Below, piece by piece: positions 22,387 through 39,414 of a DNA stretch of 64,000 nucleotides (positions are counted from its first letter, which is position 1; each line of letters starts with the position of its first letter). Below the pieces are notes generated by a model. That model made no database searches, was not told where the DNA came from, and worked only from the letters and a program-made list of their open reading frames with translations. Source of the DNA: Escherichia phage vB_Eco_F26; sequence record OP870145.1, one strand, 5' to 3'. The translations under genes and the position numbers were made by a program.

Positions 22387-22414
22387 TTTGTGTTCCTCCG
22401 TAGTTGATAGTTGT

Positions 22415-22444
22415 ATAGTACCACAGAGGAACGGTCTTGTAAAC
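22415..22444 (-). promoter_or_regulatory. Early promoter (-35 GTTTAC / -10 TACTAT) within a conserved module tagttgatagttgtatagtaccac
   Basis: One of five copies of this module (also near 24551, 28123, 38181, 38531). Confidence 0.55.
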
Positions 22445-22446
22445 CA

Positions 22447-22761
22447 CTAAAAGAAACTTCTTTCACAATTTTTTCCACTGAACCACGCGCTCACTGCTTT
22501 CTTAGTCTCAGGAGCAGTGTTATCCATAAACCATTCAAAGGCAGCCTTTTTATGATTCTGGAGGGCTTCTCGAGCTTTAATCTGCTCACGGTCTATTAAC
22601 ACTAACATATGAGCCTTTCTTGTCACCAAGGGCTTCTTATGATTCTTGGAGTATTCCCAGTCATTTGTCCATCGCATCGTTGTTGCGAATTGAAGTACAG
22701 CTTCTTTAATTTTAGTTTCGTAAATTTCACGAGCCTTTGAGTATAACATCATTACCTCCAT
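22447..22761 (-). CDS. Hypothetical protein
   Basis: 104-aa ORF. Confidence 0.45.
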   Translation of the reverse strand: MEVMMLYSKAREIYETKIKEAVLQFATTMRWTNDWEYSKNHKKPLVTRKAHMLVLIDREQIKAREALQNHKKAAFEWFMDNTAPETKKAVSAWFSGKNCERSFF

Positions 22762-22831
22762 TTACCAGTTTAATTCTAGTCATCTTTTTAATGGCAGTCC
22801 ATATAATCTATTTCTGAACTTCCTTTTTGTC

Positions 22832-23551
22832 TTAGGATTCTTCTAAATGTCTTTTCTGAAAAGTTGATACCATACTACGATACGGTTCATTTGGATATCC
22901 GTGTTTTATAGCTTCCTTTGTAAATTTTCTCCATCCATATTTAGTTTCTTTCCAAAGCTCGAATAATTCATCTTCATACTGCCATATAGTTAAATGAGAA
23001 CGCTTTGCAGCTTTAATTCCATTAATATGCTTTTCTTTTACTGTAGGATTGCTTAGTTTCTTTTTAATAATATTACTAACTTTTCTAACAAAAACTGGGT
23101 CCTTATATCGTTGCGAAGTTTTTATTGAAGTGTTTAATTTAGCTTCCGGCGTGGATGTGACCTCTTTCATCTTTTTCTTCATATGCTGTATATGATTAGG
23201 ATTTTTCCATAAATTTATAGAATGCTTTTTGCATTTTATCCTAGTTTCATCTGCAACCTTTCCTCCTTCACCCCCGTATGACAGGTTAACACAGTTTTTT
23301 CCATATTTCAATTTACCTGCCATGATATATAATATTTCAGCTTGTACCATTTTATCATAATTATCAAAAACTTCTAAAACCGTTTTTGATAATATGTGGT
23401 CATTTGACACTTTTACACGTTCTATATAATTTCCACTACCAACATACGAATCATTGATGTTATTAGTTATATGTCGACCATAATAGTATTTCTTAATACC
23501 TGTCTTTAAATTTAATATTTCAGTTTTATAGATAGTAAAATATTTTTTCAT
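22832..23551 (-). CDS. GIY-YIG homing-endonuclease-like protein (free-standing)
   Basis: 239 aa; YFTIYKTEILNLKTGIKKYYYGRH...GSG GIY-YIG module; basic C-terminus. Confidence 0.6.
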   Translation of the reverse strand: MKKYFTIYKTEILNLKTGIKKYYYGRHITNNINDSYVGSGNYIERVKVSNDHILSKTVLEVFDNYDKMVQAEILYIMAGKLKYGKNCVNLSYGGEGGKVADETRIKCKKHSINLWKNPNHIQHMKKKMKEVTSTPEAKLNTSIKTSQRYKDPVFVRKVSNIIKKKLSNPTVKEKHINGIKAAKRSHLTIWQYEDELFELWKETKYGWRKFTKEAIKHGYPNEPYRSMVSTFQKRHLEES

Positions 23552-24528
23552 TTTAATAATACCGTTTCAGCAATTTCTTCCCAATGGTTTTTGTCGGTCA
23601 TAATAAAGTCAGCAAGATAAAGAGCAGTACGCAGTGAAACATTGCGTAAACGATTAACATTGACTTTCATCCATGATAATGCTTTATAAGTTTCTTCATC
23701 AGAAAGACCGCGCTTTTGCATCATGTCAGTTGAAAGAATAACATCTTCAACCCTGACCATAATTTCTTCATTAGTGTGAACACCCAAATCCAAATAAACT
23801 GAGCGGGACACTAATGCTTGTAAATGTGGAGCAAGTTTAGTACCACGGTCTAATTCGCGGTCAATATCAACGTTTGTGATAAAAACAATCGTTCCTTTAA
23901 ATTCAAACTCACGCTCAATGCCTTTTTCTTCTAAGTAAGAAGATGCAGTGCTCCAGCAGACTTTACGGGTCTCTCCAGTGTCCAGAGCAGCTTTCAGAAG
24001 ATTAAGAATGTCCATATCAGAGAAAACATCCACATCATCAATCAAAAGGACAGAATTCTCTTCACGATTATTCCAAAGCTGTTCATAAAGACCGATACCA
24101 GAGATTTTACCATTAATGCTTTTATACTCAATGTATCCAATATCATTTGCTTTATTCAAAGCTTTATCTAAAGAATACGTTTTACCAATACCTGCCGCAC
24201 CAGAGATAATTAATGAACGAATGTTTCCGTTAATAATACCATTCGTCATCATTCCCATAACATTAAATCTTTTATTAATGCGGGTTTTCATATCTTCATA
24301 TGATTCTTTAACTTCTTCAACTTTTACACCATCATATGAAATGTCTGATTTGTAAACCCAAACACCGCGACGCTTACCGTCAATTTCAACAAAAACTTTA
24401 CCATCTCCTTGTGCATCTACCGGAGCATTATCTGGGAACCATTCGCCTAAGAGCTCAAAAGTTCCAGAGATTTCTTTACCGAAGTAGATACCCTTATTGA
24501 TAGTTACAGTTTTCATTTTATTCTCCAA
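23548..24528 (-). CDS. AAA+/P-loop ATPase
   Basis: 326 aa; Walker A GAAGIGKT, Walker B LLIDDVD. Confidence 0.6.
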   Translation of the reverse strand: MENKMKTVTINKGIYFGKEISGTFELLGEWFPDNAPVDAQGDGKVFVEIDGKRRGVWVYKSDISYDGVKVEEVKESYEDMKTRINKRFNVMGMMTNGIINGNIRSLIISGAAGIGKTYSLDKALNKANDIGYIEYKSINGKISGIGLYEQLWNNREENSVLLIDDVDVFSDMDILNLLKAALDTGETRKVCWSTASSYLEEKGIEREFEFKGTIVFITNVDIDRELDRGTKLAPHLQALVSRSVYLDLGVHTNEEIMVRVEDVILSTDMMQKRGLSDEETYKALSWMKVNVNRLRNVSLRTALYLADFIMTDKNHWEEIAETVLLK

Positions 24529-24550
24529 ATCTGTATCAGTTGATAGTTGT

Positions 24551-24580
24551 ATAGTACCATAAAGCTTTATGCTTGTAAAC
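24551..24580 (-). promoter_or_regulatory. Early promoter (-35 GTTTAC / -10 TACTAT) with upstream A/T element
   Basis: Conserved module; upstream of the ATPase ORF. Confidence 0.55.
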
Positions 24581-24610
24581 AGTTTTGTGAAAAAATTTTG
24601 AAATAAAAAA

Positions 24611-24628
24611 GGGAGCCCGAAGGCTCCC
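24611..24628 (-). terminator. Stem-loop GGGAGCCCGAAGGCTCCC
   Basis: Perfect 7-bp stem, CGAA loop, directly downstream of ORF 24631-25644. Confidence 0.5.
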
Positions 24629-24630
24629 TA

Positions 24631-25644
24631 TCATTTATAATAACTTCGGTGGTTTTCAAGATAGACCTTCTCAAGGAAGTCATCCCAGAAACTCATGTCT
24701 ACTTTTTGTTGCATACCATTCTTAGAAGCTTCAGTAGATGCTGCTTCTACTTGATCGACCACATCTTCCAAAAACTCTTGAACTGTTTTAAATGGATGTT
24801 TACCCAACTTCACGTCGAGAATAAATGGAGCATCTTGGAGTGGATAAATCAAGTCGCCAGTTTTGTAAATTTCCAATAGTTGAAGTCCACCACGACAAGC
24901 ATGACTTAGTGCTTTCCAGTCAATACCTTCATTGGCTTCGGCCTTACGAGCGCGTTCACCATATTCAGCATCTAATTTGTTCAGTGACTGCTTAAGCTCA
25001 ATAAGAGAAAGAGTTGTCTGATATTTACGACCCAACACAGTGTAGAACGTTTGTGGGCCTGTTTTCTCATGATTATGGAACACCCATTCACAGAATTCGT
25101 TTTCTGGAAGACGATGCTTAATATCTTCAACTTTAGTACGACGCTGCTTAATGGAACCGTCTTCTTGGTAATCAACCCATTGCTCGGGGATTTGATTAAC
25201 TACTTTCAATACATCGCGTAATGCAGCCAAACGAGAACCCTTGACACCGTATTTAGAAGCTTGCTTGCGGACATATCCTAAATAGGATTTCATGTTAGTC
25301 GTATAAAAACGAGAACGGTTGTCTTGAATAAACTTCCACACATCAGGCAAATCGGATTTAACCACTAGTTCAGGTGGAGTGTGAAGCATATCCAACGCTA
25401 CAGTTTCACCATCTGCTGCTAATTTAAAGAAATACTTAAGACTGTATAGTTCATGGTCAATATCATCTTTAGTGTTTTTAGATGATGTGTTGTTAGTGTT
25501 TTTACTCATGTGCTCTTTGACATTTCCGATAAGAATATCGCGAGCAGGAGGAACAAAGATTTCTTTAAAATCTACATCAGATTCTGGGGTAGAAGTTCCA
25601 TAAAGATGACTACCAAAATAGCTTTTCATTACTGTTTTCATCAT
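24631..25644 (-). CDS. Predicted nucleotidyltransferase-fold protein (Pol-beta superfamily)
   Basis: 337 aa; N-terminal GS-x-LYGT-x5-SDVD motif typical of the NTase fold. Confidence 0.5.
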   Translation of the reverse strand: MMKTVMKSYFGSHLYGTSTPESDVDFKEIFVPPARDILIGNVKEHMSKNTNNTSSKNTKDDIDHELYSLKYFFKLAADGETVALDMLHTPPELVVKSDLPDVWKFIQDNRSRFYTTNMKSYLGYVRKQASKYGVKGSRLAALRDVLKVVNQIPEQWVDYQEDGSIKQRRTKVEDIKHRLPENEFCEWVFHNHEKTGPQTFYTVLGRKYQTTLSLIELKQSLNKLDAEYGERARKAEANEGIDWKALSHACRGGLQLLEIYKTGDLIYPLQDAPFILDVKLGKHPFKTVQEFLEDVVDQVEAASTEASKNGMQQKVDMSFWDDFLEKVYLENHRSYYK

Positions 25645-26102
25645 TCAGCCTTATATTCAATAACAGGACATACTTTAGCTTTACGAGCTTTTAAAAATTC
25701 GACGATAATCGATTTCTTGGGTTGAATAGGAGGTAAACCTTTATACGCCCTATCAATATTTTCTACGTGTAAAGCATAATCCTTTTTCCATTTATAATCT
25801 TTATATTTTTCACGCAAATGTGCAGGAATAACAAATGAACTGATAATAAGTAAAACAACCAAAAGCGCAAGTATAAATGCTGATGGAAGCAAAGTCCATA
25901 AACTACCAAAAATAATCCAACGTTGTAGGCTTTCTGCACAAATAATTGTTAGCCCTACGAGTATAGCACATCCAAAAATAGAAACGAAAAATGTAGGAAT
26001 GGCAATAGACCAAAAATATGCGCACAGTGTCTTAGGTCGTTGCCATTCATCGTTAAACATTTTGAATAATTTATAGTGCCAAGAGTTTTCATTAATAATC
26101 AT
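25641..26102 (-). CDS. Predicted membrane protein
   Basis: 153 aa with 3-4 hydrophobic helices. Confidence 0.45.
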   Translation of the reverse strand: MIINENSWHYKLFKMFNDEWQRPKTLCAYFWSIAIPTFFVSIFGCAILVGLTIICAESLQRWIIFGSLWTLLPSAFILALLVVLLIISSFVIPAHLREKYKDYKWKKDYALHVENIDRAYKGLPPIQPKKSIIVEFLKARKAKVCPVIEYKAE

Positions 26103-26104
26103 AA

Positions 26105-26626
26105 TTATCCTTTCATTGAAGGCGTAACAGTTGTTAAATACTTAATCATAGCTTCAGCTTCTGATTTTGATAGTGAAATTTCTTCACCGTTTTGGCGAAT
26201 AGAAACAAAATCTGGATGACGATCACCACCAGCTTTTAAAACACACATATAAGTATCAGCTTCGCCTTCAATATTTGAAATGATTGAAGCAGTTCCACAT
26301 GAATGCGGTTTTTGATAAATCAATACAGCTTTTCTTCCACCATTTGACTGTTCATAGGCTTTTAATACATCAAGCAAATCAGTTCTTTTATCAATAGCTA
26401 AGATGTTATTTTCATCTTCAATATTAAATCCTTCGGATACTTCATAAAGAGTTACCCATAAATCACCGATGTCAATAACAGCATTTACTTTTCCACGGCT
26501 TTCAAGAGTATGACAAATTTTCTTGATTTCGTCATAACTCATTTTAATAATATCATCTCCTTGAATAAGAAAGATGTCATTTTTAAATTCAACACGAATT
26601 AAACCACTTTCACTTGAAATAAACAT
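26105..26626 (-). CDS. Hypothetical protein, paralog of the adjacent upstream ORF
   Basis: 173 aa; shares GFNIE and ...EA-A-KYL-V-P-M C-terminal motifs with ORF 26633-27178. Confidence 0.45.
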   Translation of the reverse strand: MFISSESGLIRVEFKNDIFLIQGDDIIKMSYDEIKKICHTLESRGKVNAVIDIGDLWVTLYEVSEGFNIEDENNILAIDKRTDLLDVLKAYEQSNGGRKAVLIYQKPHSCGTASIISNIEGEADTYMCVLKAGGDRHPDFVSIRQNGEEISLSKSEAEAMIKYLTTVTPSMKG

Positions 26627-26632
26627 ATTTCC

Positions 26633-27178
26633 TCACTTTGAAATCATAGTTGGAATGACAGAATCAAGATAAGTCTTTAGCGCAATAGCTTCGTCTTTGG
26701 TAAATGTGACAATATGTGCTCGAAAATCATCAATTTGACGAATAGTTAAGACATCTCCATCTTCATAACATTTTGATACGTTTAAAACAGTTTCATCATT
26801 CTGATTGCAAGCGTTAGTAATAATAGCATTGCAATTTTTAAACCATTTTAAACTATGTTTTCTTTCATTAGAATAATAAAAATATTTAATCTTATCTATA
26901 AAACTATCCCAATGGATAACTGATAAGCATATTGACTCGCTTTCAATATTAAATCCTGGGCATGAAGAATAAAAATGAATTTTATGCTCATCATTAATGC
27001 TTACAATTTTATCAGTATAAGGATTTTCAATTTTGGTTAAATGAATGATTTCACTAGGCGTAAAATACAGCATATCGTCTTCTTGTGTCAAACGATACAT
27101 ATTATTTACTTTTTCTATAGCCAATTCACCAAAAAGTGAACTAACTTCTAATACTAATCGTTTCGCCGCTACCGTCAT
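26633..27178 (-). CDS. Hypothetical protein, paralog of the adjacent downstream ORF
   Basis: 181-aa ORF. Confidence 0.45.
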   Translation of the reverse strand: MTVAAKRLVLEVSSLFGELAIEKVNNMYRLTQEDDMLYFTPSEIIHLTKIENPYTDKIVSINDEHKIHFYSSCPGFNIESESICLSVIHWDSFIDKIKYFYYSNERKHSLKWFKNCNAIITNACNQNDETVLNVSKCYEDGDVLTIRQIDDFRAHIVTFTKDEAIALKTYLDSVIPTMISK

Positions 27179-27310
27179 TACATACTCCTCTGAATCATAT
27201 CAATAATGTTGTTCACCAGATTATAAGTAAACATTGGGTAATTATATTGAATCACCACATACACAACAAGCAAAACTTTCATTCTCTTCTCCTTGGCAGT
27301 TGACAAGATT

Positions 27311-27340
27311 ACTATACCATAACCTTGCCAACTTGTAAAC
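27311..27340 (-). promoter_or_regulatory. Early promoter (-35 GTTTAC / -10 TATAGT)
   Basis: Minus strand GTTTACaagttggcaaggttatggTATAGT. Confidence 0.5.
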
Positions 27341-27342
27341 CA

Positions 27343-27516
27343 TTAAATGACGTTTTCAATAAAATTCTGAAGCTTTGTGTGAGCATCAACCATGATTTTC
27401 ATTTCTTCCTTTGCGAAAGCTGTACCTCTTTCCCGAGCAGAATACTCATAGTCAGAAACTGCATTAGCATATTCTTCAATTAGCTTCATTAAAAACATCT
27501 GCTTTTCAGTTTTCAT
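27343..27516 (-). CDS. Small hypothetical protein (57 aa, below ORF-track threshold)
   Basis: Hand translation MKTEKQMFLMKLIEEYANAVSDYEYSAREREGT...; co-oriented. Confidence 0.3.
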   Translation of the reverse strand: MKTEKQMFLMKLIEEYANAVSDYEYSARERGTAFAKEEMKIMVDAHTKLQNFIENVI

Positions 27517-27700
27517 TATTCCACCTAATCATTTCAAGATATTGAACTAACTTAGCTTTAGATTTATCCAAATCCTTTTTAGCTGCTTCTATACCGTCGT
27601 ATGAATATCCTTCACAATGCTCAACTGCTAATTGATATGAATCTATTTCAATATCACGTGCTAATTTAATGATTTTTTCAAACTGTTCGAGTGTTAGCAT
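27506..27700 (-). CDS. Hypothetical small protein
   Basis: 64-aa ORF. Confidence 0.4.
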   Translation of the reverse strand: MLTLEQFEKIIKLARDIEIDSYQLAVEHCEGYSYDGIEAAKKDLDKSKAKLVQYLEMIRWNNEN

Positions 27701-27702
27701 AA

Positions 27703-27942
27703 TTAAACTCTCGTATTATGATCGATAATTTCATCAAGAAACATATCTAACGCTTCTAAAGCATTATCAACTTTAGTTTCAAAGTCTTTAATGCCTTTAT
27801 TCGAAATACCCGATGAATACCAAGCAAAGTCAATCAGCTCTTCATCTGCTTTACGAATTGAAGCCACTAATTCCTTGATTTTATCTGCTTGCTCTATACT
27901 AATCATTATTCCACCACATATGACAGAGAGAATATTGCACAC
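27703..27942 (-). CDS. Hypothetical small protein
   Basis: 79-aa ORF. Confidence 0.4.
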
Positions 27943-28139
27943 GCCATATGCGTTGCAGCTTCATCACACATATTATAACGTTTCTTCAAAACTTCAACAA
28001 GTTCTTCACTAGTAACTTCATCCATGTTGACGAAAAAATCACCATTAATGATGACGTAGATATTTCCTTCTTGATTGAGTGCTTCAATTTTCATGATGTT
28101 CTCCTCTTTATCCGATAGTTGTATAGTACCACAGCTCAA
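27906..28139 (-). CDS. Hypothetical small protein
   Basis: 77-aa ORF downstream of an early promoter. Confidence 0.4.
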
Positions 28140-28152
28140 ACGGAAAGTAAAC
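28123..28152 (-). promoter_or_regulatory. Early promoter (-35 GTTTAC / -10 TACTAT), conserved module
   Basis: Minus strand GTTTACtttccgtttgagctgtggTACTAT. Confidence 0.55.
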
Positions 28153-28167
28153 CGGTAAAATGAAAAA

Positions 28168-28185
28168 AGTCTCCCGAAGGAGACT
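28168..28185 (-). terminator. Stem-loop AGTCTCCCGAAGGAGACT
   Basis: Perfect hairpin downstream of ORF 28190-28576. Confidence 0.45.
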
Positions 28186-28189
28186 AATG

Positions 28190-28576
28190 TTATTCGAGGG
28201 AAAGAAGATACTTACTCTGGTAAAACATTCCAGTAATATCATCTATCGTGCTTTGGATGGCTGGAGGCATTTCTTTATAAATGCTGTTAGATTGGTCTAG
28301 TATGCGATCAATCATTTTAATTGTGTCGGTAGGAAGTTTACTGGCATCTGGAATTGAAGGTGTGTATTTTCTACCAGAATACCCCAAATATTGCTCACCA
28401 AATTTATCAATCAAATCTGGCAACTCGGAGAAAATAAAATCGTATGCTTTGTGTCTAGCATAACTTTTAGTTTCAAAATGTGCAGAATGAAAATAAGCTT
28501 GTGCAGCCATTAATAAACCTAAGTATTCATCTGCCTTTGAAGGTTTTCCACTTTGTGAAAAGTCGCTGAATTTCAT
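28190..28576 (-). CDS. Hypothetical protein
   Basis: 128-aa ORF immediately downstream of rI. Confidence 0.45.
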
Positions 28577-28866
28577 TCAGTCTCCAATTTAATGTTCATA
28601 ATTCTAGCGTATGATTGTGCCATCTCCGCGCCTCGCTCTATACATTCAAAATCAGAAGAGCACGGGTCATTTTTATAAGTCGTTCGCATAAAACTATAGA
28701 ACTGTTCAGATGATTCTACGCTTTTATTTTCAAAAAGCATATAAACGTGTCTAATACCAGATTCCATAAATTTATCAAAATGAGGATCGACATTCGCTTC
28801 AATCGGTGGAGACAAAGCAAATGCTAATCCTAGCATGGCAAATAGTGCCGTTGCTTTTAAGGCCAT
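28573..28866 (-). CDS. rI: Lysis-inhibition regulator RI (periplasmic antiholin)
   Basis: 97 aa; MALKATALFAMLGLAFALSPPIEANVDPHFDKFMESGIRHVYMLFENKS... matches recalled T4 RI. Confidence 0.93.
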   Translation of the reverse strand: MALKATALFAMLGLAFALSPPIEANVDPHFDKFMESGIRHVYMLFENKSVESSEQFYSFMRTTYKNDPCSSDFECIERGAEMAQSYARIMNIKLETE

Positions 28867-28878
28867 AAAGGCCTCCTA

Positions 28879-29091
28879 TCATTTTTGTCCTGTATTTACT
28901 TTATGCCGATGCACGGCCTTAACTTTATCAAGGTATTTTTCAAAATTTCGCAATCTAGTATAGTCTGCCGGAGATTGGTTGAGTGATACTTCTCGACGCA
29001 AAGCTGAAATGATATTTCCAACTTCCCTACGAATTTCATCTAATTGAAGAACAGTAAGATTGCGAAGTTGCTTTTCAGTTAATTGTAGCAT
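28879..29091 (-). CDS. Hypothetical small protein
   Basis: 70-aa ORF. Confidence 0.4.
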
Positions 29092-29133
29092 ATATACCCC
29101 TTTAGTTAGATAAACCTATTTATAACTTTTGCA

Positions 29134-29715
29134 CTAACCGAGCTTTTTAGTTAATTCATTCCAATGTTTTCTGCACAAAGAAACATAAATTTCATCACCA
29201 ATACAGATTTGATTACCTTCTTTAACTGGTGTTCCATCTTCCATTAATCGAGCTGTCATAATAGCTTTTTTACCACAATGACAAACTGCTTTTAGTTCAA
29301 TAAGTTTATCTGCAATCGCCAAAAGTTCTTTAGAACCTTCAAATAATTTTCCAGCGAAATCAGTCCTTAATCCATAAGCCATAACAGGAACATTATATGT
29401 ATCAACAATTCGACTTAATTGATGCACTTGTTCAGTTTTTAAAAACTGAGCTTCATCTACAAATACGCAATGAATATCTTTTTGTGCTTCAGCCCATTTA
29501 TAGAACTCGAAAATATCCATATCATCTGTAATAATATTCGCTTCCTGTTTAATTCCAATGCGAGAAACAACTTCACAGACAGAATCGCGAGTATCAATAG
29601 CAGGCTTAAGAACTAATACACTCATTCCACGTTCTTTATAATTATGTGCAGCAGTCAAAAGAGAAGCAGATTTTCCAGCATTCATTGCTGCATAAGTAAA
29701 AATTAAACTCGCCAT
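29134..29715 (-). CDS. tk: Thymidine kinase
   Basis: 193 aa; P-loop AMNAGKS and C-terminal Cys motifs of type II thymidine kinase; matches recalled T4 Tk. Confidence 0.93.
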   Translation of the reverse strand: MASLIFTYAAMNAGKSASLLTAAHNYKERGMSVLVLKPAIDTRDSVCEVVSRIGIKQEANIITDDMDIFEFYKWAEAQKDIHCVFVDEAQFLKTEQVHQLSRIVDTYNVPVMAYGLRTDFAGKLFEGSKELLAIADKLIELKAVCHCGKKAIMTARLMEDGTPVKEGNQICIGDEIYVSLCRKHWNELTKKLG

Positions 29716-29716
29716 C

Positions 29717-29905
29717 TTAGTCCTTAGTTAAATTTTCTAAATATGTTTTTAAATCATTTTCAGCTTTATCGATAGATTTTACTAATTCGTAATATGTTTC
29801 GGCATCTCCATATTCAGAAGATATTTCAAAAGACAAATCCTTTTCTAAACTAATAATTTCACCAACTAAAAATAATATTTCGTTCTTTTGTTCGCGAGTA
29901 ATCAT
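29717..29905 (-). CDS. Hypothetical small protein
   Basis: 62-aa ORF. Confidence 0.4.
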   Translation of the reverse strand: MITREQKNEILFLVGEIISLEKDLSFEISSEYGDAETYYELVKSIDKAENDLKTYLENLTKD

Positions 29906-30093
29906 AAGGAATTTATATAATTAATAAGTTCTTGTTCTTTATTATCGAATTCTTTAGAAAGTTCTTCGTACTCGTTTGCACTAAAAGGACCGCATTCATT
30001 ACAAACTTTTTCCAATTCACTATTTTTATCCATAACTTCGTGGATAAGAGAAAAGAGTTTGTCTTTTTGTTCTTTACTTAAACTCATAACCAT
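29902..30093 (-). CDS. Hypothetical small protein
   Basis: 63-aa ORF. Confidence 0.4.
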   Translation of the reverse strand: MVMSLSKEQKDKLFSLIHEVMDKNSELEKVCNECGPFSANEYEELSKEFDNKEQELINYINSL

Positions 30094-31104: not shown

Positions 31105-31642
31105 TTACTATTTCCAAAAGTTTATTATTTTTAAGGTAATTAGCCTTTTCTAGGACTTCAGAAGCATATTTAGAACCAGCTTTAACATTCCATCCCGAAT
31201 TATAAGAGGATATCGCCTTTCTTATATCGCCCTTATGTATATTTAACCAATAAGAAAGTTCAATGTACGCCCAGGAAGCTGAATTGGACCGTTTATTCAA
31301 CATTCTTTTTATTTCAGCATCGGTCATATTATAACCAAGTTCCTTAACTCTTGCTCGCATAGTAGGCAAATAATTTTGGAACATTCCGTAGGCGTGATGC
31401 TTTGGTTTAGATTTTAAATTAACTCCGCCAGAGCTTTCTTGCCATAAAATAGCAGCCATTATATGACCTAATCCGCTCTTGTGGATATTTTTATGTGTTT
31501 TATATTTTCCATCCTTAGAAAATTGTTCCCCGAATTGATACGCGTAACGCATGTTATCGAGTTGGACATTACTGAAAGTATGCTCGGAGCTATGTGCCAT
31601 CATTGAAATGGCCAATAGACCAGCGAGTAGTGCTTTTCTCAT
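31097..31642 (-). CDS. Secreted lytic-transglycosylase-like protein
   Basis: 181 aa; signal-like N-terminus MRKALLAGLLAISMMAHS; AILWQESSGG resembles the SLT catalytic E-S motif. Confidence 0.45.
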   Translation of the reverse strand: MRKALLAGLLAISMMAHSSEHTFSNVQLDNMRYAYQFGEQFSKDGKYKTHKNIHKSGLGHIMAAILWQESSGGVNLKSKPKHHAYGMFQNYLPTMRARVKELGYNMTDAEIKRMLNKRSNSASWAYIELSYWLNIHKGDIRKAISSYNSGWNVKAGSKYASEVLEKANYLKNNKLLEIVND

Positions 31643-31649
31643 GCTTACC

Positions 31650-32111
31650 TCATTGAGTTTTAATTACTGCTTTAGAAGCCTTTCCTGGTAAACGACGACT
31701 GTTAATAATTGCCATCCTACATTGAAGTGACGGGTCTTTGAACTTCTCATTAGGTTTACAAACTGTAAATCCAAGCCAAAGATTTCCATCTGTGATTTCT
31801 AAACGTCCAGGACGATATTCAATTCCATCAATAAAATCCTCGTCAATGTCAGGACGCGGAGGCATACTCAGGAATTCATTAACTTCTAAAACATGGTCTT
31901 TTATTTTATGGAATAATTCAAAAACGTATGTCTCATCAATCTCCCGTTGAATTGCGCGATCAAGAAGATGTTGAGAATATTTTAGATGAAACGATGAGAC
32001 TCCTGCTGCTTTTGATGCCTCACGAATCTCATTGTTAATTTGACGAAACTCCGACTCAAAGTGACGACGAAGCTTATTTCGACGGATAAAAACTTCTGTA
32101 TTGATAGTCAT
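31650..32111 (-). CDS. regB: RegB site-specific endoribonuclease
   Basis: 153 aa; MTINTEVFIRRNKLRRHFESEFRQINNEIREASKAAGVSSFHLKYSQ... matches recalled T4 RegB. Confidence 0.93.
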   Translation of the reverse strand: MTINTEVFIRRNKLRRHFESEFRQINNEIREASKAAGVSSFHLKYSQHLLDRAIQREIDETYVFELFHKIKDHVLEVNEFLSMPPRPDIDEDFIDGIEYRPGRLEITDGNLWLGFTVCKPNEKFKDPSLQCRMAIINSRRLPGKASKAVIKTQ

Positions 32112-32127
32112 GTTGTTCTCCTCTTGA

Positions 32128-32157
32128 CTGATAGAAAAATTATACCACAGTCAAGAG
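32128..32157 (-). promoter_or_regulatory. Early promoter (-35 GTTTAC / -10 TATAAT) for regB
   Basis: Minus strand GTTTACttttcctcttgactgtggTATAAT about 17 nt upstream of the regB start. Confidence 0.6.
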
Positions 32158-32170
32158 GAAAAGTAAACAG

Positions 32171-32491
32171 TTATTCTTTAAATCTAATCAATTTATTCAT
32201 AGACTTTGAAACTTCTGCACGAACCTCATGTAGATTTTTGAGCTGTTCAAGACGCTGCTCATAGTAAGCAATTTCATCTTCTTCGAGACAGTCCTGTGAA
32301 TCTTCTTTAAGATAGCGTGCATAGTCCTGGAAAGCGTTACGGACTACTTCCTGGAAATCATCAAGACTTTGAATTTTCTTAGGAGCAACAGATACACGAC
32401 GAGGGGCAGTATAATACTCATAACCAAACCCTGCGCTTAATTGAGCCATTAATATTTTTCCTCTGGTTGGAACACAGCACGACAAGCCCAC
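32171..32491 (-). CDS. Hypothetical protein
   Basis: 106-aa ORF. Confidence 0.45.
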
Positions 32492-32751
32492 ATACTGGCT
32501 TCTTTGAGTTTCGTTTTAGCAATAGTTAACTGATCGAGGCTTTCGGCATAATTCTTCGCGAATTCACAGTCTTCACAATTATCTAGTGCTTCCCAGAATT
32601 CATCGTATAAAGCATCAAAGATAAGTCCTAAACGAACTTCAGCGTCTTTGATGGCATTCACTTTACCGATTTTCTTTTCAGTATGCGGCTTATAACCCTT
32701 AATATCTTCAATCATATTTGACTTCCTCACCAGTACATAAATCATATTCAA
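32449..32751 (-). CDS. Hypothetical protein
   Basis: 100-aa ORF. Confidence 0.4.
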
Positions 32752-32929
32752 CTAAACGAATAGGTTCATGAATGCCATATCCCTGAACAGAAATTTCTGT
32801 AGTAGGATAAATTCCATCAATATCACCCATGTTCCATGCTTCGTTAAATTGCTGTTCGCCTGAATTACTAAACCATTCGGCGAAAGCATTTAGCACATCT
32901 TCAGAACCTTCAATAATTATCTTTGCCAT
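32708..32929 (-). CDS. Hypothetical small acidic protein
   Basis: 73-aa ORF. Confidence 0.4.
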   Translation of the reverse strand: MAKIIIEGSEDVLNAFAEWFSNSGEQQFNEAWNMGDIDGIYPTTEISVQGYGIHEPIRLVEYDLCTGEEVKYD

Positions 32930-33291
32930 TACAAACTCTCGGTAAAGGTACGAGCAATAACGTCGCGTTGCTGTTCCGGAGTCAGAGAGTTAAAGCGAAC
33001 TGCATAACCGGATACACGGATGGTCAGCTGCGGATATTTTTCCGGATGCTTAACTGCATCTTCCAGAGTTTCACGACGCAGAACGTTAACGTTCAGGTGT
33101 TGACCACCTTCAATTTTAACTGTAGGCTGTTGCTCAATTTCAATTTCACGGGCATGCAAACCGTAGAAAATTTCTGGGTCTACAAAAGAGTCCTCTTTAA
33201 AGGTTTTAGAGACAATAATTCGTGCTTGAATACCATCTTCAAAATAAATAGTACCTTTATGTGTGCCTTCAAGAATTTGATATGCTTTCAT
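32929..33291 (-). CDS. Autonomous glycyl-radical cofactor (GrcA/YfiD-like)
   Basis: 120 aa; C-terminal ~65 aa ([61 protein letters not shown]) matches recalled E. coli GrcA/PFL C-terminus including the RVSGY glycyl-radical motif. Confidence 0.8.
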
Positions 33292-33298
33292 ATAAACC

Positions 33299-33679
33299 TC
33301 AATTAAAAAATAAATTTATCCAAGATTGTTCTTTAATTAAAAATGGCTCAGAATCATATGCCATTAAACTCTGTGTGATTAGTCCTTTAAAAGGCCCATC
33401 AATAAATTCCATGGTAAAATATGGAATTTTATTCATTAGCCGTGCATTAGGAGCAGTACATAAAACTCTGCATCCTTTGAATACACCCTTTTGTAATTTG
33501 TATTGCTTGGGATAAAATTCGCTCAAAATGTTATTATTCGCTAAAATTTCAAAATGATTCACCAATTTATTTTTAATAGTTTTTGGTGAAAAATAGAGAT
33601 ATTCGAAAAGCTGTGCGTCTGTCATCATTGCATTCCGATTACGAAAAACTGTGGACGAGTAATACCACCAATGCAACAT
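33299..33679 (-). CDS. Hypothetical protein
   Basis: 126-aa ORF. Confidence 0.4.
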
Positions 33680-34164
33680 TTACTATTGCAACAGTACTGT
33701 ACAGTGTCAATATGAGCATCATAAATCTTATCCATATCAGGAGATTTGACAGGCTCGTCAATTATATACAAAATTCGCGAAAGCGATAAACCTCTGAACT
33801 TGCTTCCTTTATTACCAATAAAACTGCGCACAGAATCAGTAAATAAACGAAAACGTATATCATCATTAGAATAACGCGAAAATTCCTTTTTAATGTCATC
33901 TGCGGAATTTTTAGCATAAACTGAAGTATTAGAAAGAACAATAACTGTTCCGCCATCATACAACCAGTTAGCAGCGAAGTTAGTCACAGCAATTGATTTA
34001 CCGGATTGACGTCCACCATCTATACGAAGTGTGCAATACTGCTTAAGTAAGTCTTCAAATGGCGGGATATATTCGTTTTTACAAATTTCTTCTACTCTAG
34101 CATCAGAATGGTGTGTAAAAGCATTCATCAGGGATAGATAAGGACCAGTTAAAAATGTTCTCAT
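33625..34164 (-). CDS. P-loop NTPase-like hypothetical protein
   Basis: 179 aa; Walker A-like GGRQSGKS and Walker B-like ILYIIDE; occupies the position where T4 has denV. Confidence 0.45.
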   Translation of the reverse strand: MRTFLTGPYLSLMNAFTHHSDARVEEICKNEYIPPFEDLLKQYCTLRIDGGRQSGKSIAVTNFAANWLYDGGTVIVLSNTSVYAKNSADDIKKEFSRYSNDDIRFRLFTDSVRSFIGNKGSKFRGLSLSRILYIIDEPVKSPDMDKIYDAHIDTVQYCCNSKCCIGGITRPQFFVIGMQ

Positions 34165-34220
34165 TTAGTTTCTCTTTTAGGTTGGGCCATTCCTTGGCGC
34201 ATGAATTGTCCATTTCTGTA

Positions 34221-34275
34221 TTTACCCCTCCAAGTAATTATGAATATACTATCACAATTCTAGGAGAAAGTAAAC
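34221..34275. repeat. Promoter-containing direct repeat, copy A (flanks IP cassette)
   Basis: caagtaa-t-tgaatatactatcacaattctaggagaaagtaaac shared with 34611-34665. Confidence 0.7.
34246..34275 (-). promoter_or_regulatory. Early promoter (-35 GTTTAC / -10 TAGTAT)
   Basis: Part of a ~45-bp repeat also present at 34611-34665. Confidence 0.5.
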
Positions 34276-34277
34276 TG

Positions 34278-34580
34278 TTATTTACCTTTAATTACTTTAG
34301 CTGCTTCGATAGCCGCTTGCTGAAGGTCATCCATAGACATACCGAATTTAGAAGCAAAGTTATCAATTTTCTTTTCGACAGCATTCAAAGGCTTGGCCTG
34401 TTTACCTTCATTAGCGCCAGGAAGAGCGAGAATACGCTCTTTGTCAATATAAAGGCTTACAAGTTTCTTACGGTCTTTATCGGACAAATCATGAAATGAA
34501 TGGGCCTTTTTATTTATAGCGGCTTCTAATTTACCTGCACTCACTCGCGCTTCAGTAATAAATTCTTGATATGTTTTCAT
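34278..34580 (-). CDS. Internal-protein (IP)-like capsid-injected protein with capsid-targeting sequence
   Basis: 100 aa; N-terminus MKTYQEFITEA matches the T4 IP capsid-targeting consensus with an LxE-type protease site. Confidence 0.7.
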   Translation of the reverse strand: MKTYQEFITEARVSAGKLEAAINKKAHSFHDLSDKDRKKLVSLYIDKERILALPGANEGKQAKPLNAVEKKIDNFASKFGMSMDDLQQAAIEAAKVIKGK

Positions 34581-34610
34581 ATGTTTCCTTTAAATATTTT
34601 AATTAATAAT

Positions 34611-34665
34611 TTATCTATTCAAGTAACTGTGAATATACTATCACAATTCTAGGAGAAAGTAAACA
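34611..34665. repeat. Promoter-containing direct repeat, copy B
   Basis: Same ~45-bp element as 34221-34275; contains -35 GTTTAC. Confidence 0.7.
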
Positions 34666-34668
34666 ACT

Positions 34669-35199
<531 letters not shown>

Positions 35200-35655
35200 T
35201 TAAAAGAGGCTGTTCATTATTCGGTAAAGTGAAGGACCCATCACGTATTGCCACTGAGTACGAGGAATAAGAGCAAAAGCGTCCATCTCTGGAATCATAA
35301 CACCATCTTTATTTTCAAAATAAGACTCACAATAGCAATTTCTGAACATCTCATGCTCTACTGGAATCGTATAATAAAATAACTGTAAGTCTTTATTACT
35401 AGAATATTTAAATACACCTAGGTCTTCTAGAAGGTCTGGATTATAATTGCTAAAACCGGTCTCTTCTAAACATTCTCTTCGTGCTGCATCTAGTGCACTT
35501 AAATCAGAATTTTCTACACGGCCCTTTGGAATATCCCAGCGATGTGCCATCATTCCAGGCTTACGAGAACCAGTAACCCGACCCATAAATAAATCTTTAT
35601 CTTCTGTCATGAAGATAATACCAGCTGATAATGTTTTCATTTTAATTTCCTGCAA
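35200..35655 (-). CDS. nudE: Nudix hydrolase NudE
   Basis: 151 aa; Nudix box GRVENSDLSALDAARRECLEETG; immediately upstream of e as in T4. Confidence 0.85.
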   Translation of the reverse strand: MQEIKMKTLSAGIIFMTEDKDLFMGRVTGSRKPGMMAHRWDIPKGRVENSDLSALDAARRECLEETGFSNYNPDLLEDLGVFKYSSNKDLQLFYYTIPVEHEMFRNCYCESYFENKDGVMIPEMDAFALIPRTQWQYVMGPSLYRIMNSLF

Positions 35656-35999
35656 TCACTCACAAACTCTTTCATTGATTCATTTTCAATATAAGACATG
35701 TAGCTATTATATTCTTTTAATTGTATTTTGTAATCCTTTTTTCTTTGCCAATTTATTTTAAAATTATCATAATGAAAATATAGCATGGTACCAAAGAATG
35801 AAAATAATGAAATAATTTTAGTATAGCGAAGTTCACTCCAAACTTCTATTATATTTACTGTGCCGTCGATGTTTAAAATAAGACAGTCAATTAATAATCC
35901 AAAAAGACTACCCGCAAGAGCTGCAGCCAACGCCACAGCAAAAATTAAAAATGACTCAGGAAGCGAATATTTGACTTTATTTAGTTTTGGCTTTTGCAT
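35637..35999 (-). CDS. Predicted membrane protein
   Basis: 120 aa with two hydrophobic helices. Confidence 0.45.
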   Translation of the reverse strand: MQKPKLNKVKYSLPESFLIFAVALAAALAGSLFGLLIDCLILNIDGTVNIIEVWSELRYTKIISLFSFFGTMLYFHYDNFKINWQRKKDYKIQLKEYNSYMSYIENESMKEFVSDCRKLK

Positions 36000-36394
36000 C
36001 GTGATTCCTTAACAAATTTCATAATTTCATCAAATTCATACGCAGCAAGTTTAAGCTGATGTTCCTTTTTAATCTTTTTACACTGTGCTTTCCAATCACG
36101 TACGCGTTTACGATAATGCCTTCCTTGATACCAGTATCCTACCCAATTTACAGGTACTAATAAAAGTGGAACTATTAATGGAAGAATTAGCATTAACACA
36201 AGTATTTCGCCAGAATCAATATCAGTCATAACATCTAAAACACCTCCAATAATCAATAGAATTACAAATGATATGAGTATAACAGGACCTATTAATACAT
36301 CAGTAGGAATTAGCTGGCGCTTTGATTCATACTTCAAAGGTTTACTTGGAAGGTATAGTGATGGCTTTGACATATTCTCTACATTCCTTAACAA
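35981..36394 (-). CDS. Predicted membrane protein
   Basis: 137 aa with hydrophobic helices. Confidence 0.45.
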   Translation of the reverse strand: MLRNVENMSKPSLYLPSKPLKYESKRQLIPTDVLIGPVILISFVILLIIGGVLDVMTDIDSGEILVLMLILPLIVPLLLVPVNWVGYWYQGRHYRKRVRDWKAQCKKIKKEHQLKLAAYEFDEIMKFVKESRCKSQN

Positions 36395-36950
36395 ATTTTT
36401 CTAGTAATAAATCACTTTCAAAATTAGGATTTTCCACTAATTTATCAAAAAGATCATCAACAATATTCAAGATATTTCTTTTACTAAGAATACGTTTATT
36501 TTCATGCTTCGTTTCAGAATCAACTATAAGAGTAAAGAAATATTTCTTTCCCTGAAATTTTACTGTAGTATCAATATAGAATAAATTTGACTTTTGTAAG
36601 TTACGTTTAAACCATGCGTCACTTAAACTATAAACACCGAGATAATCAAAATCGTCGTTTAAATAACAAACTGTCCATTCAGGAGAAATGAAATCAGTAA
36701 ATTCAACATCAAAATCACATGTCAATAAATGAATTGATTCAATATTGTTAATAAGTATTCCAGGACGTATTAAAGACTTTTTACCTCTGGAAAATCTTCC
36801 AGAAAGACTTTCATCAGTTTCATATGAAGAACCCCAATAATAATTACGTCCTTCTGCCATACGTTTAAGAGCATTTAGTAATTGATCTGGAACATCAACC
36901 TGTCTTTGGAACTCTTCAAACATTGAATTGAAATCACTTTGCATTTTCAT
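36342..36950 (-). CDS. Hypothetical protein
   Basis: 202-aa ORF. Confidence 0.45.
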   Translation of the reverse strand: MKMQSDFNSMFEEFQRQVDVPDQLLNALKRMAEGRNYYWGSSYETDESLSGRFSRGKKSLIRPGILINNIESIHLLTCDFDVEFTDFISPEWTVCYLNDDFDYLGVYSLSDAWFKRNLQKSNLFYIDTTVKFQGKKYFFTLIVDSETKHENKRILSKRNILNIVDDLFDKLVENPNFESDLLLEKFVKECREYVKAITIPSK

Positions 36951-36971
36951 TCCTATTTACTCCAAGTAATA

Positions 36972-36985
36972 GGGGCCGAAGCCCC
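36972..36985 (-). terminator. Stem-loop GGGGCCGAAGCCCC
   Basis: Perfect hairpin. Confidence 0.45.
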
Positions 36986-36991
36986 TTATCA

Positions 36992-37585
36992 TTATTTCAG
37001 AGAATTAATGTATTCCTGAACATCGGCAGAAGTAGTTTCAACCCCAGAAATATTACCGTTAAAGGTTTCAACTCGAGCAAGGGTATCTTCAATATCAACC
37101 TTAGTCAGTGCTGCAATTTCAACTACATCATCAGCAGTACTAATTCCAAGGGCATTTGCTGCACGAGTTTCACGGATATATTCCAATTTAACTGCAAGTT
37201 CTTGGCGAGCATCATCCAATTCAACTACTTTCTTGGCGATTTCAATTCGCATTTCAGCATACCCATCAGCTTTAGTAGTCAACTGTTCAGCTGTTCGACG
37301 ATATAGCAAGCCGAGTTTAGCATGCATTGTTACATCTTGACCTTCGGAAAGAAGCTTGCGAATTTCACGCTCTTTTGATTCAGCCTGTTTATTCTTTTCA
37401 ATAACAAGTTCACGAATACGTTTTTCTTCATTAATAGATTTAACAGAAGCAGTTTTTAGGTCTTTAATTTTATCAAGTAATTTTGCTGCTGCAGCAGTGT
37501 ACTGTTCTTCAACAGATAGATTTTTAGCCATAGCAGAACCAAGTTTAGTGCGAATAAAATCAACAATTTTCTTCAGTGTGTTCAT
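36992..37585 (-). CDS. Coiled-coil protein, PspA/IM30-like
   Basis: 197 aa, almost entirely heptad-rich helical sequence. Confidence 0.35.
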
Positions 37586-37633
37586 AGTATTTCCTTAGGT
37601 TAATTAAGATTTAAAATCCATGAGAGTATTATA

Positions 37634-37810
37634 CTCCGGATAGTTTGTAAACTATTTCAACATCGCCTTTTGCTGCTTTATAACCTTCAGCCCAAGATAC
37701 AACCGAGTTTTTATCTGAAGATTCAAATTCTGGCATTGGACTTTCATCAATGTTCACACAGTATGTTTCTTCATTTTCGTCAAACCAAATAGTTAAAGTA
37801 GTCATTTATT
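37634..37810 (-). CDS. Small hypothetical protein (58 aa, below ORF-track threshold)
   Basis: Hand translation MTTLTIWFDENEETYCVNIDESPMPEFESSDKNS... Confidence 0.3.
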
Positions 37811-37873
37811 TCTCCGCTTCTGTGATTGTTTTGATAAGTCTATAATAACACCGTCCTTGGTGTTTGTACACAC

Positions 37874-38137
37874 TTATTTCATATTATTGAAATATTCTTC
37901 TGCGATTTCATCGTTATCGTGGTAAACTTTAGAAGACAGTTTAACATAACCTTCAGCAGTGAACATATTAATCACAACTTTTACAGTATACCACTGACCG
38001 TCTTCATTACCCATTACTGCGTAAGTTTCAAACATCGGATGGTCAGGACCGATAACTTTAATATCATTCACTGTACGACCGAAATCTTCTGAAACGCATT
38101 TCATAAAGAAGTTGAACAGTTCGCCGTAATTATCCAT
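37874..38137 (-). CDS. Hypothetical small protein (start region duplicated in the adjacent tandem repeat)
   Basis: 87 aa from ATG at 38137 (MDNYGELFNFF...), GGAG 7 nt upstream; track ORF uses an upstream TTG. Confidence 0.5.
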   Translation of the reverse strand: MDNYGELFNFFMKCVSEDFGRTVNDIKVIGPDHPMFETYAVMGNEDGQWYTVKVVINMFTAEGYVKLSSKVYHDNDEIAEEYFNNMK

Positions 38138-38180
38138 TTCATTCTCCAAGTTGTTTTCTGTATCAGTAGTTGATAGTTGT

Positions 38181-38210
38181 ATAGTACCACGGAAGAACAG
38201 AGATGTAAAC
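38181..38210 (-). promoter_or_regulatory. Early promoter (-35 GTTTAC / -10 TACTAT), conserved module; copy 1
   Basis: Minus strand ttcacaaaactGTTTACatctctgttcttccgtggTACTAT. Confidence 0.55.
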
Positions 38211-38530
38211 AGTTTTGTGAAAAATTTTTTAAAAAGTTTTAGGGAATTCTAGGGAAGGGAGGGGCAATTAAAGGATAGGATAATATATTATAAAGGGTAG
38301 AAACTAAATGATGCCTAGAGAGGTCCAGAAAGGCCTAGATGCCAAAAAGCCCTATCATTTAGATAGGGATTTAAAATTATTTATCTAGTTTAGTTATTAT
38401 AGCTTCTACGGCAGCTTTTAGCTTAGATGCGGTGTTAATACGATTTTTAATTTCAGTATACGCGAACAGTTCGCCGTAATTATCCATTTCATTCTCCAAG
38501 TTGTTTTCTGTATCAGTAGTTGATAGTTGT

Positions 38531-38560
38531 ATAGTACCACGGAAGAACAGAGATGTAAAC
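38531..38560 (-). promoter_or_regulatory. Early promoter, duplicate copy 2 inside the tandem repeat
   Basis: Identical to 38181-38210 at +350. Confidence 0.5.
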
Positions 38561-39290: not shown

Positions 39291-39385
39291 TTAAAATCCT
39301 TGAAATAATTTATCGGTTGGTTATTAATTATTTATTACTTTGTTATTATCCGTAACAGCATTCTCTATGTGATTCAAACTAAAAA

Positions 39386-39405: not shown

Positions 39406-39414
39406 CTAAGAATG

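Follow-up and report, generated by a model that had tools for sequence, protein, structure and literature searches.

Recurrent modules in Escherichia phage vB_Eco_F26 are best read as T4-like early promoters at the boundaries of exchangeable gene cassettes

What is the short sequence module that recurs five times in Escherichia phage vB_Eco_F26 (sequence record OP870145.1), and has it shaped the gene order around it? We analyzed a stretch of 64,000 nt (the window) and conclude, with a probability of roughly 0.92, that the five modules are sigma-70-dependent T4-like early promoters (Pe), which in combination with upstream terminators constitute the published promoter-early stem-loop cassettes (PeSLs). 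The motif is a well-known, strong T4-like early promoter that is real, ordinary, and already described. In the genome of a T4-like phage, such modules show where early transcription units begin and delimit the exchangeable ORF cassettes; they have little significance beyond annotation.

A motif search of the window located the 24-mer TAGTTGATAGTTGTATAGTACCAC on the plus strand at 22401, 24537, 28109, 38167, and 38517 (0, 2, 3, 0, and 0 mismatches, respectively), compared to 0.00 matches in the shuffled window. The five-copy repeat described in an earlier note on this DNA is thus borne out (5 sites vs 0 expected), with all five sites present and their positions off by 0–4 nt. On the minus strand, all five copies take the form GTTTAC-N14-GTGGTACTAT-ACAACTATC; the 18-nt gap given in the earlier note is correct for the distance between the two hexamers, and the distance from the 24-mer to GTAAAC is 14 nt. 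GTTTAC-N18-TACTAT occurs exactly at all five sites, and when one mismatch is allowed it occurs at 11 sites vs 0.38 expected, every one of them on the minus strand, which is the strand of the early genes. At least eight more promoters of the same class are present in the window (-35 elements at 8774, 19464, 32168, 34275, 34664, 37652, 42745, and 43075). Alignment of the five copies revealed GTTTAC and TGGTACTATACAACTATC as the invariant blocks; these are the blocks contacted by RNA polymerase, whereas the -35/-10 spacer is variable. The module had been described as five copies of ~45 bp, but we found that the conserved unit extends over ~100 bp in copies 2, 4, and 5, from an upstream AAAATTTTTTCACAAAAC element through the ATG, and that copy 5 cannot be counted independently of copy 4, as both lie within an exact tandem duplication (350 bp x 2). 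Each motif is followed after 22–40 nt, with a Shine-Dalgarno (SD) sequence, by the ATG of a gene (nrdC.8, nrdC.10, mobD.5, or e.8). The coordinates are given in Table 1.

Table 1. Positions in the window of the five modules, their elements, and the tandem duplication.
Feature	Position	Strand	Remark
Copy 1, early promoter of nrdC.8	22384..22474	-	orthologous to T4 53943
Copy 1 -35 GTTTAC	22439-22444	-	
Copy 1 extended -10 and -10 GTGGTACTAT	22415-22424	-	
Copy 1 predicted start A	22408	-	
Copy 1 SD GGAGG	22395-22399	-	
Copy 1 ATG	22384-22386	-	
Copy 1 nrdC.9 stop codon	22447-22449	-	nrdC.9 3' end overlaps region upstream of -35
Copy 1 dyad	22420-22432	-	pairs with 22392-22404; hairpin z=-4.86
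Copy 2, terminator-promoter cassette of nrdC.10	24514..24629	-	orthologous to T4 55384
Copy 2 terminator AGGGAGCCTTCGGGCTCCCT and T-run	24610-24629	-	
Copy 2 A/T-rich upstream element	24581-24600	-	
Copy 2 -35	24575-24580	-	
Copy 2 -10 TACTAT	24551-24556	-	
Copy 2 predicted start	24544	-	
Copy 2 SD GGAGAATAAAA		-	perfect RegB/S1 cleavage consensus
Copy 2 ATG	24514-24516	-	
Copy 3, terminator-promoter cassette of mobD.5	28092..28185	-	orthologous to T4 58780
Copy 3 terminator AGTCTCCTTCGGGAGACT and T-run	28168-28185	-	
Copy 3 -35	28147-28152	-	
Copy 3 -10	28123-28128	-	
Copy 3 predicted start	28116	-	
Copy 3 ATG	28092-28094	-	
Copy 4, promoter of e.8	38135..38368	-	orthologous to T4 70696
Copy 4 stem-loop CCCTATCTAAATGATAGGG and T-run	38350-38368	-	
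Copy 4 upstream element	38211-38235	-	
Copy 4 -35	38205-38210	-	
Copy 4 -10	38181-38186	-	
Copy 4 predicted start	38174	-	
Copy 4 ATG	38135-38137	-	
e.8	37874-38137	-	
Copy 5	38485..38718	-	exact duplicate of copy 4
Copy 5 stem-loop	38700-38718	-	
Copy 5 -35	38555-38560	-	
Copy 5 -10	38531-38536	-	
Copy 5 predicted start	38524	-	
36-aa fusion ORF	38377-38487	-	driven by copy 5 (predicted)
Perfect tandem duplication, 2 x 350 bp	38114..38813	.	38114-38463 = 38464-38813

The window belongs to a Tequatrovirus (95–98% identical to RB14 and others), and the claim that the modules are early promoters is upheld by their fit to the T4 Pe consensus, their orthology to T4 promoters, and mapping data from T4. 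The modules fit the T4 early-promoter consensus GTTTAC(N14)gtggTAttaT, which we took from the GenBank annotation of the orthologous e.8 site; in phage SA21RB, the e.8 promoter site is annotated as a T4 early promoter. All five copies carry an exact -35 GTTTAC(A/T) as well as (G/A)TGGTACTAT, and an A/T-rich UP-like tract lies upstream of the -35 (AAAATTTTTTCACAAAAC in copies 2, 4, and 5; copies 1 and 3 have a T-run or an A-rich tract). A sigma-70 scan returned copies 4 and 5 as TTTACA-17-TACTAT with TG ahead of the -10. Since scanning the window (34% G+C) for a generic sigma-70 consensus has no discriminating power (81 hits vs 79.3 expected), we base the promoter call on the T4-specific consensus together with orthology. 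The T4 genome holds eight sites of the same subfamily (27080, 53943, 55384, 58780, 70696, 146875, 163673 (motA), and 167086), four of which are orthologous to window copies and front nrdC.8, nrdC.10, mobD.5, and e.8. The T4 RefSeq and GenBank records contain no promoter features at these sites, and an Rfam search gave no match at the modules, returning only 10 tRNAs. In published work on T4, primer extension gave a stop for the mobD.5 promoter, RegB cleaved at nrdC.8 (PMC1702504), and the paralogue Pe26.4 started at map unit 27,044, an A located 7 nt after TACTAT (PMC6024815). Compared to the T4 promoters Pe26.4 (imm.1), motA, and mobD.5, the modules share the -35, the spacing, the extended -10, the -10 variant TACTAT, the A/T-rich upstream element, the strand, and the gene context, and the 17-nt core GGTACTATACAACTATC is identical. 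Four copies are positional orthologues, and the differences amount to a few substitutions (e.g. ACAACCATC in T4 mobD.5) and nothing of substance; the fifth copy, which derives from the duplication, is present here and absent from T4 and other relatives. The sigma-70-type -10 with TGn, a feature of about half of the T4 middle promoters (PMC2988021), would also suit MotA-dependent middle promoters. The chance that the modules are these, or gp55-dependent late promoters, appears negligible: the MotA box (a/t)(a/t)TGCTT(t/c)A centred at -30 is missing, no spacer or -35 region contains TGCTT, GTTTAC stands there instead, and none of the five copies has the late box TATAAATA at -10.

We propose that unmodified E. 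coli RNA polymerase would bind the A/T-rich element (AAAATTTTTTCACAAAAC), the -35 GTTTAC(A/T), the extended -10 (TGG), and TACTAT as the -10, across a spacer of 17 nt, as the fit to the consensus suggests. By analogy with the T4 literature, the modules are expected to be active, and to be so early in infection. Transcription in F26 is predicted to start at the A 7 nt past TACTAT, giving a leader of 22–37 nt with a GGAG-type Shine-Dalgarno sequence. Judging from the perfect match of the copy 2 SD to the RegB consensus (GGAGRAYARAA; PMC3014915), RegB cleavage might later inactivate this early mRNA. The small genes would be insulated from upstream transcription by UUCG-loop terminators at copies 2 and 3, and by a more distant stem-loop at copies 4 and 5.

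These terminators link the modules to a known architecture. The two CCGAAGG stem-loops reported in the earlier note are real and correspond, on the minus strand, to CUUCGG-loop terminators followed by T-runs at copies 2 and 3. At copies 4 and 5, a terminator-like stem-loop of another sequence lies ~140 nt upstream. The combination of stem-loop and promoter into one unit, also proposed there, holds and is the published PeSL architecture (PMC2839356; PMC4122927). The copies (TTTACA or TTTACT, N17, TACTAT) match TTTACW-N17-TAYWAT, the PeSL consensus of the phages PST and T4 (PMC4122927). They resemble PeSLs (Arbiol et al., 2010, PMC2839356; Comeau et al., 2014, PMC4122927) in the terminator stem-loop, A/T-rich tract, early promoter, SD, and ATG, in their setting among small ORFs of a hyperplastic region, and in module-bounded indels in relatives, with crossovers between the -10 and the ATG or in the A/T-rich tract. 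They differ in that the stem-loop of copy 1 overlaps the -10 rather than lying upstream (a listed PeSL subclass; PMC2839356), that the stem-loop of copies 4 and 5 is ~140 nt away, and that the mobD.5 copy is not polymorphic among relatives.

Cassette turnover, which the earlier note had tentatively linked to the repeats, is visible in relatives. The gap between nrdC.11 and nrdC.10 (copy 2 locus) holds zero to three extra module-bounded ORF cassettes, which we observed in six states (none, A, B, A+B, C, and B+C), with crossovers inside the modules; the junctions map to TACTATacaactATCAA... or to the TTTTTCACAAA element. With its several states, this gap is a clean example of PeSL shuffling as modelled in the literature. 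At the e.8 locus (copy 4), breakpoints in relatives map to the stem-loop (~38352) and to the e.8 stop codon. We found no cassette polymorphism at the mobD.5 locus (copy 3) in ~500 relatives, which indicates that not every copy is a recombination hotspot. Because the conserved blocks recur at many sites, the modules probably act as short homology patches for the phage's own recombination system; the ORF cassettes that they bound are gained, lost, and swapped between relatives. The proposal that the repeats supply homology is backed by the relatives, but the term 'illegitimate' for the recombination does not apply because the process depends on short homology. Cassette junctions inside modules, and the helper protein that the PeSL authors left possible (PMC2839356), could also point to targets of a dedicated site-specific recombinase or to a small mobile element, with an incidental promoter look. 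We regard this as very improbable, given that the invariant positions are RNA-polymerase contact elements with the right spacing and orientation ahead of every gene, that the spacer is variable, that terminal repeats, target duplications, and an associated recombinase gene are all lacking, and that transcripts have been mapped at orthologous T4 sites.

The early promoters also do not account for the tandem duplication, which the earlier note had tentatively attributed to their homology. Its junctions (38113/38114, 38463/38464, and 38813/38814) show 0 nt of microhomology and lie in coding sequence (e.8 codon 8/9 and the 3' end of the upstream ORF), none of them in a promoter, and promoter homology was thus not the cause; copy 5 arose from the duplication rather than giving rise to it. 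The duplication also fuses the initial 8 codons of e.8, in frame, with the final 28 of the upstream ORF, and an exact look-up of the resulting 36-aa fusion ORF gave no match on record. Among the matches listed, close relatives, including one that is 99.9% identical, have the same region 350 bp shorter. A 100-bp junction probe was split into two pieces ~350 bp apart in all of the best 12 records, and in a search of 50,697 phage records the unbroken junction was not found among the matches listed. Copy 5 may be absent from the real phage: we consider it an even chance that copy 5 and the duplication are an assembly artefact, in which the genome is circularly permuted, its terminal overlap was left untrimmed before re-orientation, and the phage has four copies. 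The perfect repeat of exactly 2.0 copies, the arbitrary endpoints within ORFs, the lack of microhomology, the shorter region and split junction in the relatives listed, and the unrecorded fusion ORF are all consistent with this, whereas the in-frame junction speaks against it, as does the fact that T4 mutations classically include tandem duplications. As a matter of quality control, the duplication with its fifth copy and fusion ORF is due for a read check before the genome is used.

A further possibility, compatible with the early-promoter reading, is that the stretch downstream of the -10 (ACAACTATCAACTAC...) is kept mainly for a role in the 5'-leader RNA and that promoter function is secondary, which we consider rather unlikely. 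In read-through RNA, this stretch would pair with the spacer or extended -10, hiding the SD unless transcription starts locally. Copy 1 forms a 13-bp stem between spacer and SD (z=-4.86), but copies 2, 3, and 4 have no significant structure (z=+1.10, -0.54, and 0.00), in several promoters the dyad joins spacer and discriminator and leaves the SD open, and stem-loops overlapping the -10 are already a PeSL subclass (PMC2839356). SD occlusion by the own spacer was rejected as a general property of T4 early promoters (accessibility across 31 promoters of 0.457 with own vs 0.447 with other spacers, p=0.66), as was the idea that the hairpin compensates for a missing upstream terminator (Mann-Whitney, p=0.5). 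We tentatively suggest that a subset of promoters, predicted to comprise copy 1 at nrdC.8, weakly e.8, and also regB, ipII, and ndd.5, might have a second role, in which a -35/-10 spacer kept complementary to the leader and SD would hide the ribosome-binding site in read-through RNA. Locally initiated RNA would be translatable because its start lies inside the loop and the 5' arm is absent. If true, each cassette gene would depend on its own promoter for translation, and the 'SL overlapping -10' class of PeSLs would gain a defined function. Established cases of the same logic are T4 e, soc, 49, and I-TevI (PMC3014915), where the SD pairs upstream of the start, as predicted at copy 1, regB, ipII, and ndd.5; those genes have late promoters, whereas here the mechanism would extend to early genes, in a subset of promoters and as predicted from sequence. 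Consistent with such a role, diverged nrdC.8 orthologues retain an SD-covering stem with other arm sequences (L020, z=-3.47; L018, z=-5.57), and the stem of L018 carries two substitutions that add two pairs. Spacer and leader of the same T4 promoter also complement each other better than spacers and leaders combined across promoters (permutation p<0.0005), and for T4 e.8 the unpaired probability of the SD is 0.06 with its own spacer compared to a median of 0.71 with the spacers of other promoters.

The string singled out in the earlier note does recur at five places in the window (Table), although the coordinates given for it were up to 4 nt off, and its 18-nt distance holds between two hexamers (GTTTAC-N18-TACTAT) rather than when counted from the 24-mer. 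The 24-mer had no matches in shuffled sequence. The exact GTTTAC-N18-TACTAT pattern was present on the minus strand at all five sites, and allowing up to one mismatch gave 11 sites, none of them on the plus strand, versus 0.38 expected. When the five copies were aligned, the blocks GTTTAC and TGGTACTATACAACTATC were invariant and the spacer between them varied. Given these matches relative to shuffles and expectation, together with the two invariant blocks, we consider the observation real, with small corrections. Conservation is longer in copies 2, 4, and 5, where it covers ~100 bp, reaching from an AAAATTTTTTCACAAAAC element to the start codon. Every module lies 22-40 nt 5' of the Shine-Dalgarno sequence (SD) and ATG of a small early gene, within a region (22000-39000) that is 95-98% identical to Tequatrovirus genomes (e.g. 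RB14 and NIC06P2) and comprises the early genes nrdC.x, mobD.x, rI, tk, vs, regB, and e.x, transcribed from the minus strand. The G+C content of the window is 32-40%, and its strand bias shifts at ~46 kb.

Table. Early-promoter modules of the window and T4 promoters sharing the 17-nt core.
Module	24-mer, + strand (mismatches)	Gene served (minus strand)	Gene start	Predicted transcription start	T4 promoter, -35
Copy 1	22401 (0)	nrdC.8	ATG 22386	22408	53943
Copy 2	24537 (2)	nrdC.10	ATG 24516	24544	55384
Copy 3	28109 (3)	mobD.5	ATG 28094	28116	58780 (one substitution)
Copy 4	38167 (0)	e.8	ATG 38137	38174	70696
Copy 5	38517 (0)	36-aa ORF	38487	38524	
T4 imm.1					27080
T4 frd.3					146875
T4 motA					163673
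T4 ndd.6					167086

The modules, correctly recognized as early promoters in the earlier note, are T4 early promoters and promoter-early stem-loop (PeSL) cassettes. They fit the T4 early-promoter consensus GTTTAC(N14)gtggTAttaT, which is annotated at the orthologous e.8 site in the GenBank record of phage SA21RB, and they agree with a published account in which T4 early promoters combine UP, -35, TGn, and -10 elements (PMC2988021). When the complete T4 genome was scanned, the 17-nt core of the modules turned up at eight promoters, four of which are positional orthologues of window copies. Neither a MotA box nor a late TATAAATA box was found in the five modules. Published T4 transcript data are consistent with this assignment: T4 map unit 27,044, reported as the start of the region downstream of Pe26.4 (PMC6024815), is an A located 7 nt past TACTAT in the imm.1 member, and a primer-extension stop was reported for the mobD.5 promoter at 3 min post-infection (PMC1702504). 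The transcription starts listed in the Table are predicted by analogy with T4. Both T4 early promoters and PeSL cassettes have long been described, and the phage is a close T4 relative.

The published PeSL cassette consists of a terminator, an A/T-rich tract, an early promoter, an SD, and an ATG (PMC2839356, PMC4122927). The same series is present in the window, and the modules match the consensus of the PST/T4 phage pair, TTTACW-N17-TAYWAT (PMC2839356, PMC4122927). The proposed stem-loop plus promoter units were evident at copies 2 and 3, where hairpins with CUUCGG loops followed by T-runs lie on the minus strand upstream of the -35, at distances of 30 nt and 16 nt, respectively; copies 4 and 5 have another hairpin type ~140 nt upstream. 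The leaders carry a GGAG-type SD, and that of nrdC.10 (GGAGAATAAAA) fits the RegB/S1 consensus GGAGRAYARAA (PMC3014915). Moderate cutting has been reported at the T4 nrdC.8 site (PMC1702504), and we infer that RegB, an RNase acting at GGAG sites of early mRNA, would also cleave in this phage.

To examine the suggestion that such cassettes promote recombination, we used 801-bp or 764-bp probes, one centred on each locus. In Tequatroviruses, the gap between nrdC.11 and nrdC.10 (corresponding to 24517-24630 in the window) exists in several cassette states. Past the nrdC.11 terminator and ahead of nrdC.10, the window and T4 contain no cassette, R5505 contains cassette A (a 66-aa ORF), D5505 and G3F6 contain cassette B (two ORFs), slur03 contains A+B, T2 contains cassette C (a 161-aa ORF along with a promoter and a terminator of its own), and AV121 contains B+C. 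Early promoters or terminators form the boundaries of every cassette, and the sequence switches just past the start site (TACTATacaactATCAA|...) or inside the TTTTTCACAAA element. Apart from T2 and AV121, all these genomes keep the nrdC.10-type promoter joined to the nrdC.11 terminator, where it serves the first cassette; in T2 and AV121, that position is taken by cassette C's own promoter, and the nrdC.10-type promoter lies behind the terminator of cassette C. This terminator and promoter in T2 closely match the T4 gene 32/frd.3 intergenic cassette. At copy 4, homology to many relatives has two end points, the stem-loop (~38352) and the e.8 stop codon, and extra upstream DNA is joined at a shared GGGCTTTTTGG terminator tail. 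Homology at copy 1 is lost ~40 nt upstream of the -35 in distant relatives, and the copy 3 locus showed no rearrangement, being collinear in ~500 relatives. Early promoters also lie at the bounds of the e.7, ipI, ipIII, and denV replacements relative to T4. Judged by sequence comparison, the gap states at copy 2, the switches inside modules, and the breakpoints at copy 4 support the cassette-turnover idea and reproduce the published PeSL model.

Several other differences from T4 were observed. A ~1.5-kb stretch without T4 counterpart (38369-39932, including a 187-aa ORF at 38727-39290) is an insertion that separates the rnaC terminator from the e.8 upstream region, and the terminator tail GGG(G)CTTTTT(G/A)G marks both of its junctions; 30 nt of terminator sequence are repeated, at 39381-39410 and again at 39939-39968. 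An ipII-like 100-aa ORF has a 56-nt promoter copy on either side (34220-34275 and 34609-34664; 89% identical, 389 bp apart), and blastn matched neither T4 denV nor T4 ipIII to the window. The place of T4 ipI is taken by an 85-aa ORF (42758-43015) enclosed by two related early promoters (42683-42775 and 43035-43103; 330 bp apart); T4 trna.3 is also missing. In place of T4 e.7 is a 58-aa ORF (37629-37805, within 37601-37872), and T4 homology restarts at the e.6 promoter (-35 at 37652), between its -10 and the SD. A seg-like homing-endonuclease gene between nrdC.9 and nrdC.10 (22832-23551), present in RB14/RB32 and not in T4, has no adjoining promoter module. As in RB14/RB32, two unrelated ORFs (25641-26626) replace T4 mobD, an HNH homing endonuclease. 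The tRNA cluster (40647-42117) has 10 genes versus 8 in T4, and the T4 segB region was unmatched there.

The only non-routine items are a 350-bp duplication and a promoter subset with SD-covering dyads. Positions 38114-38463 and 38464-38813 are identical (350/350), forming a perfect 2 x 350-bp tandem duplication whose unit comprises the final 87 nt of the upstream ORF, the terminator, the promoter, and e.8 up to codon 8. The duplication thus gives e.8 a second promoter, and at its junction codons 1-8 of e.8 continue in frame into the final 28 codons of the upstream ORF, making a 36-aa fusion ORF (38377-38487); a database look-up found no record of the fusion protein. The bases flanking the duplication mismatch on both sides, so junction microhomology is absent. 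Every relative among the matches listed is 350 bp shorter over this span, one with 99.9% identity included. A 100-bp junction probe matched as two pieces ~350 bp apart in 12/12 best records and was unsplit in none of the matches listed. Since the junctions lie outside the modules and lack microhomology, promoter homology, which had been offered as an explanation of the duplication, is rejected as the cause; copy 5 is itself a product of the duplication. Absent from the relatives among the matches listed, this unique duplication reflects an untrimmed assembly overlap or else an illegitimate event of very recent origin, and it calls for read-level verification.

In many promoters of this class, a dyad brackets the -10. 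Such dyads lie on the minus strand at 22392-22432, 32110-32168, 34215-34275, 42690-42745, and 43020-43075. Copy 1 pairs its spacer, GUUCCUCUGUGGU, with ACUACGGAGGAAC in the leader (z=-4.86), and the regB promoter at 32168 gave z=-5.32; at both nrdC.8 and regB, the dyad pairs the spacer with the SD (z about -5). The same hairpin z test found no significant structure in copies 2, 3, and 4. SD occlusion was not general among T4 early promoters (p=0.66), and it did not depend on whether a terminator lies upstream (p=0.5). A PeSL subclass with stem-loops overlapping the -10 has already been listed, and a translational-insulator role is known for e, soc, 49, and I-TevI. By analogy, a subset of these early promoters, and only a subset, may possibly have such a role. 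Diverged nrdC.8 orthologues keep the SD-covering stem with arms of different sequence, and in T4 the complementarity between a promoter's own spacer and leader exceeds that of mismatched combinations (p<0.0005).
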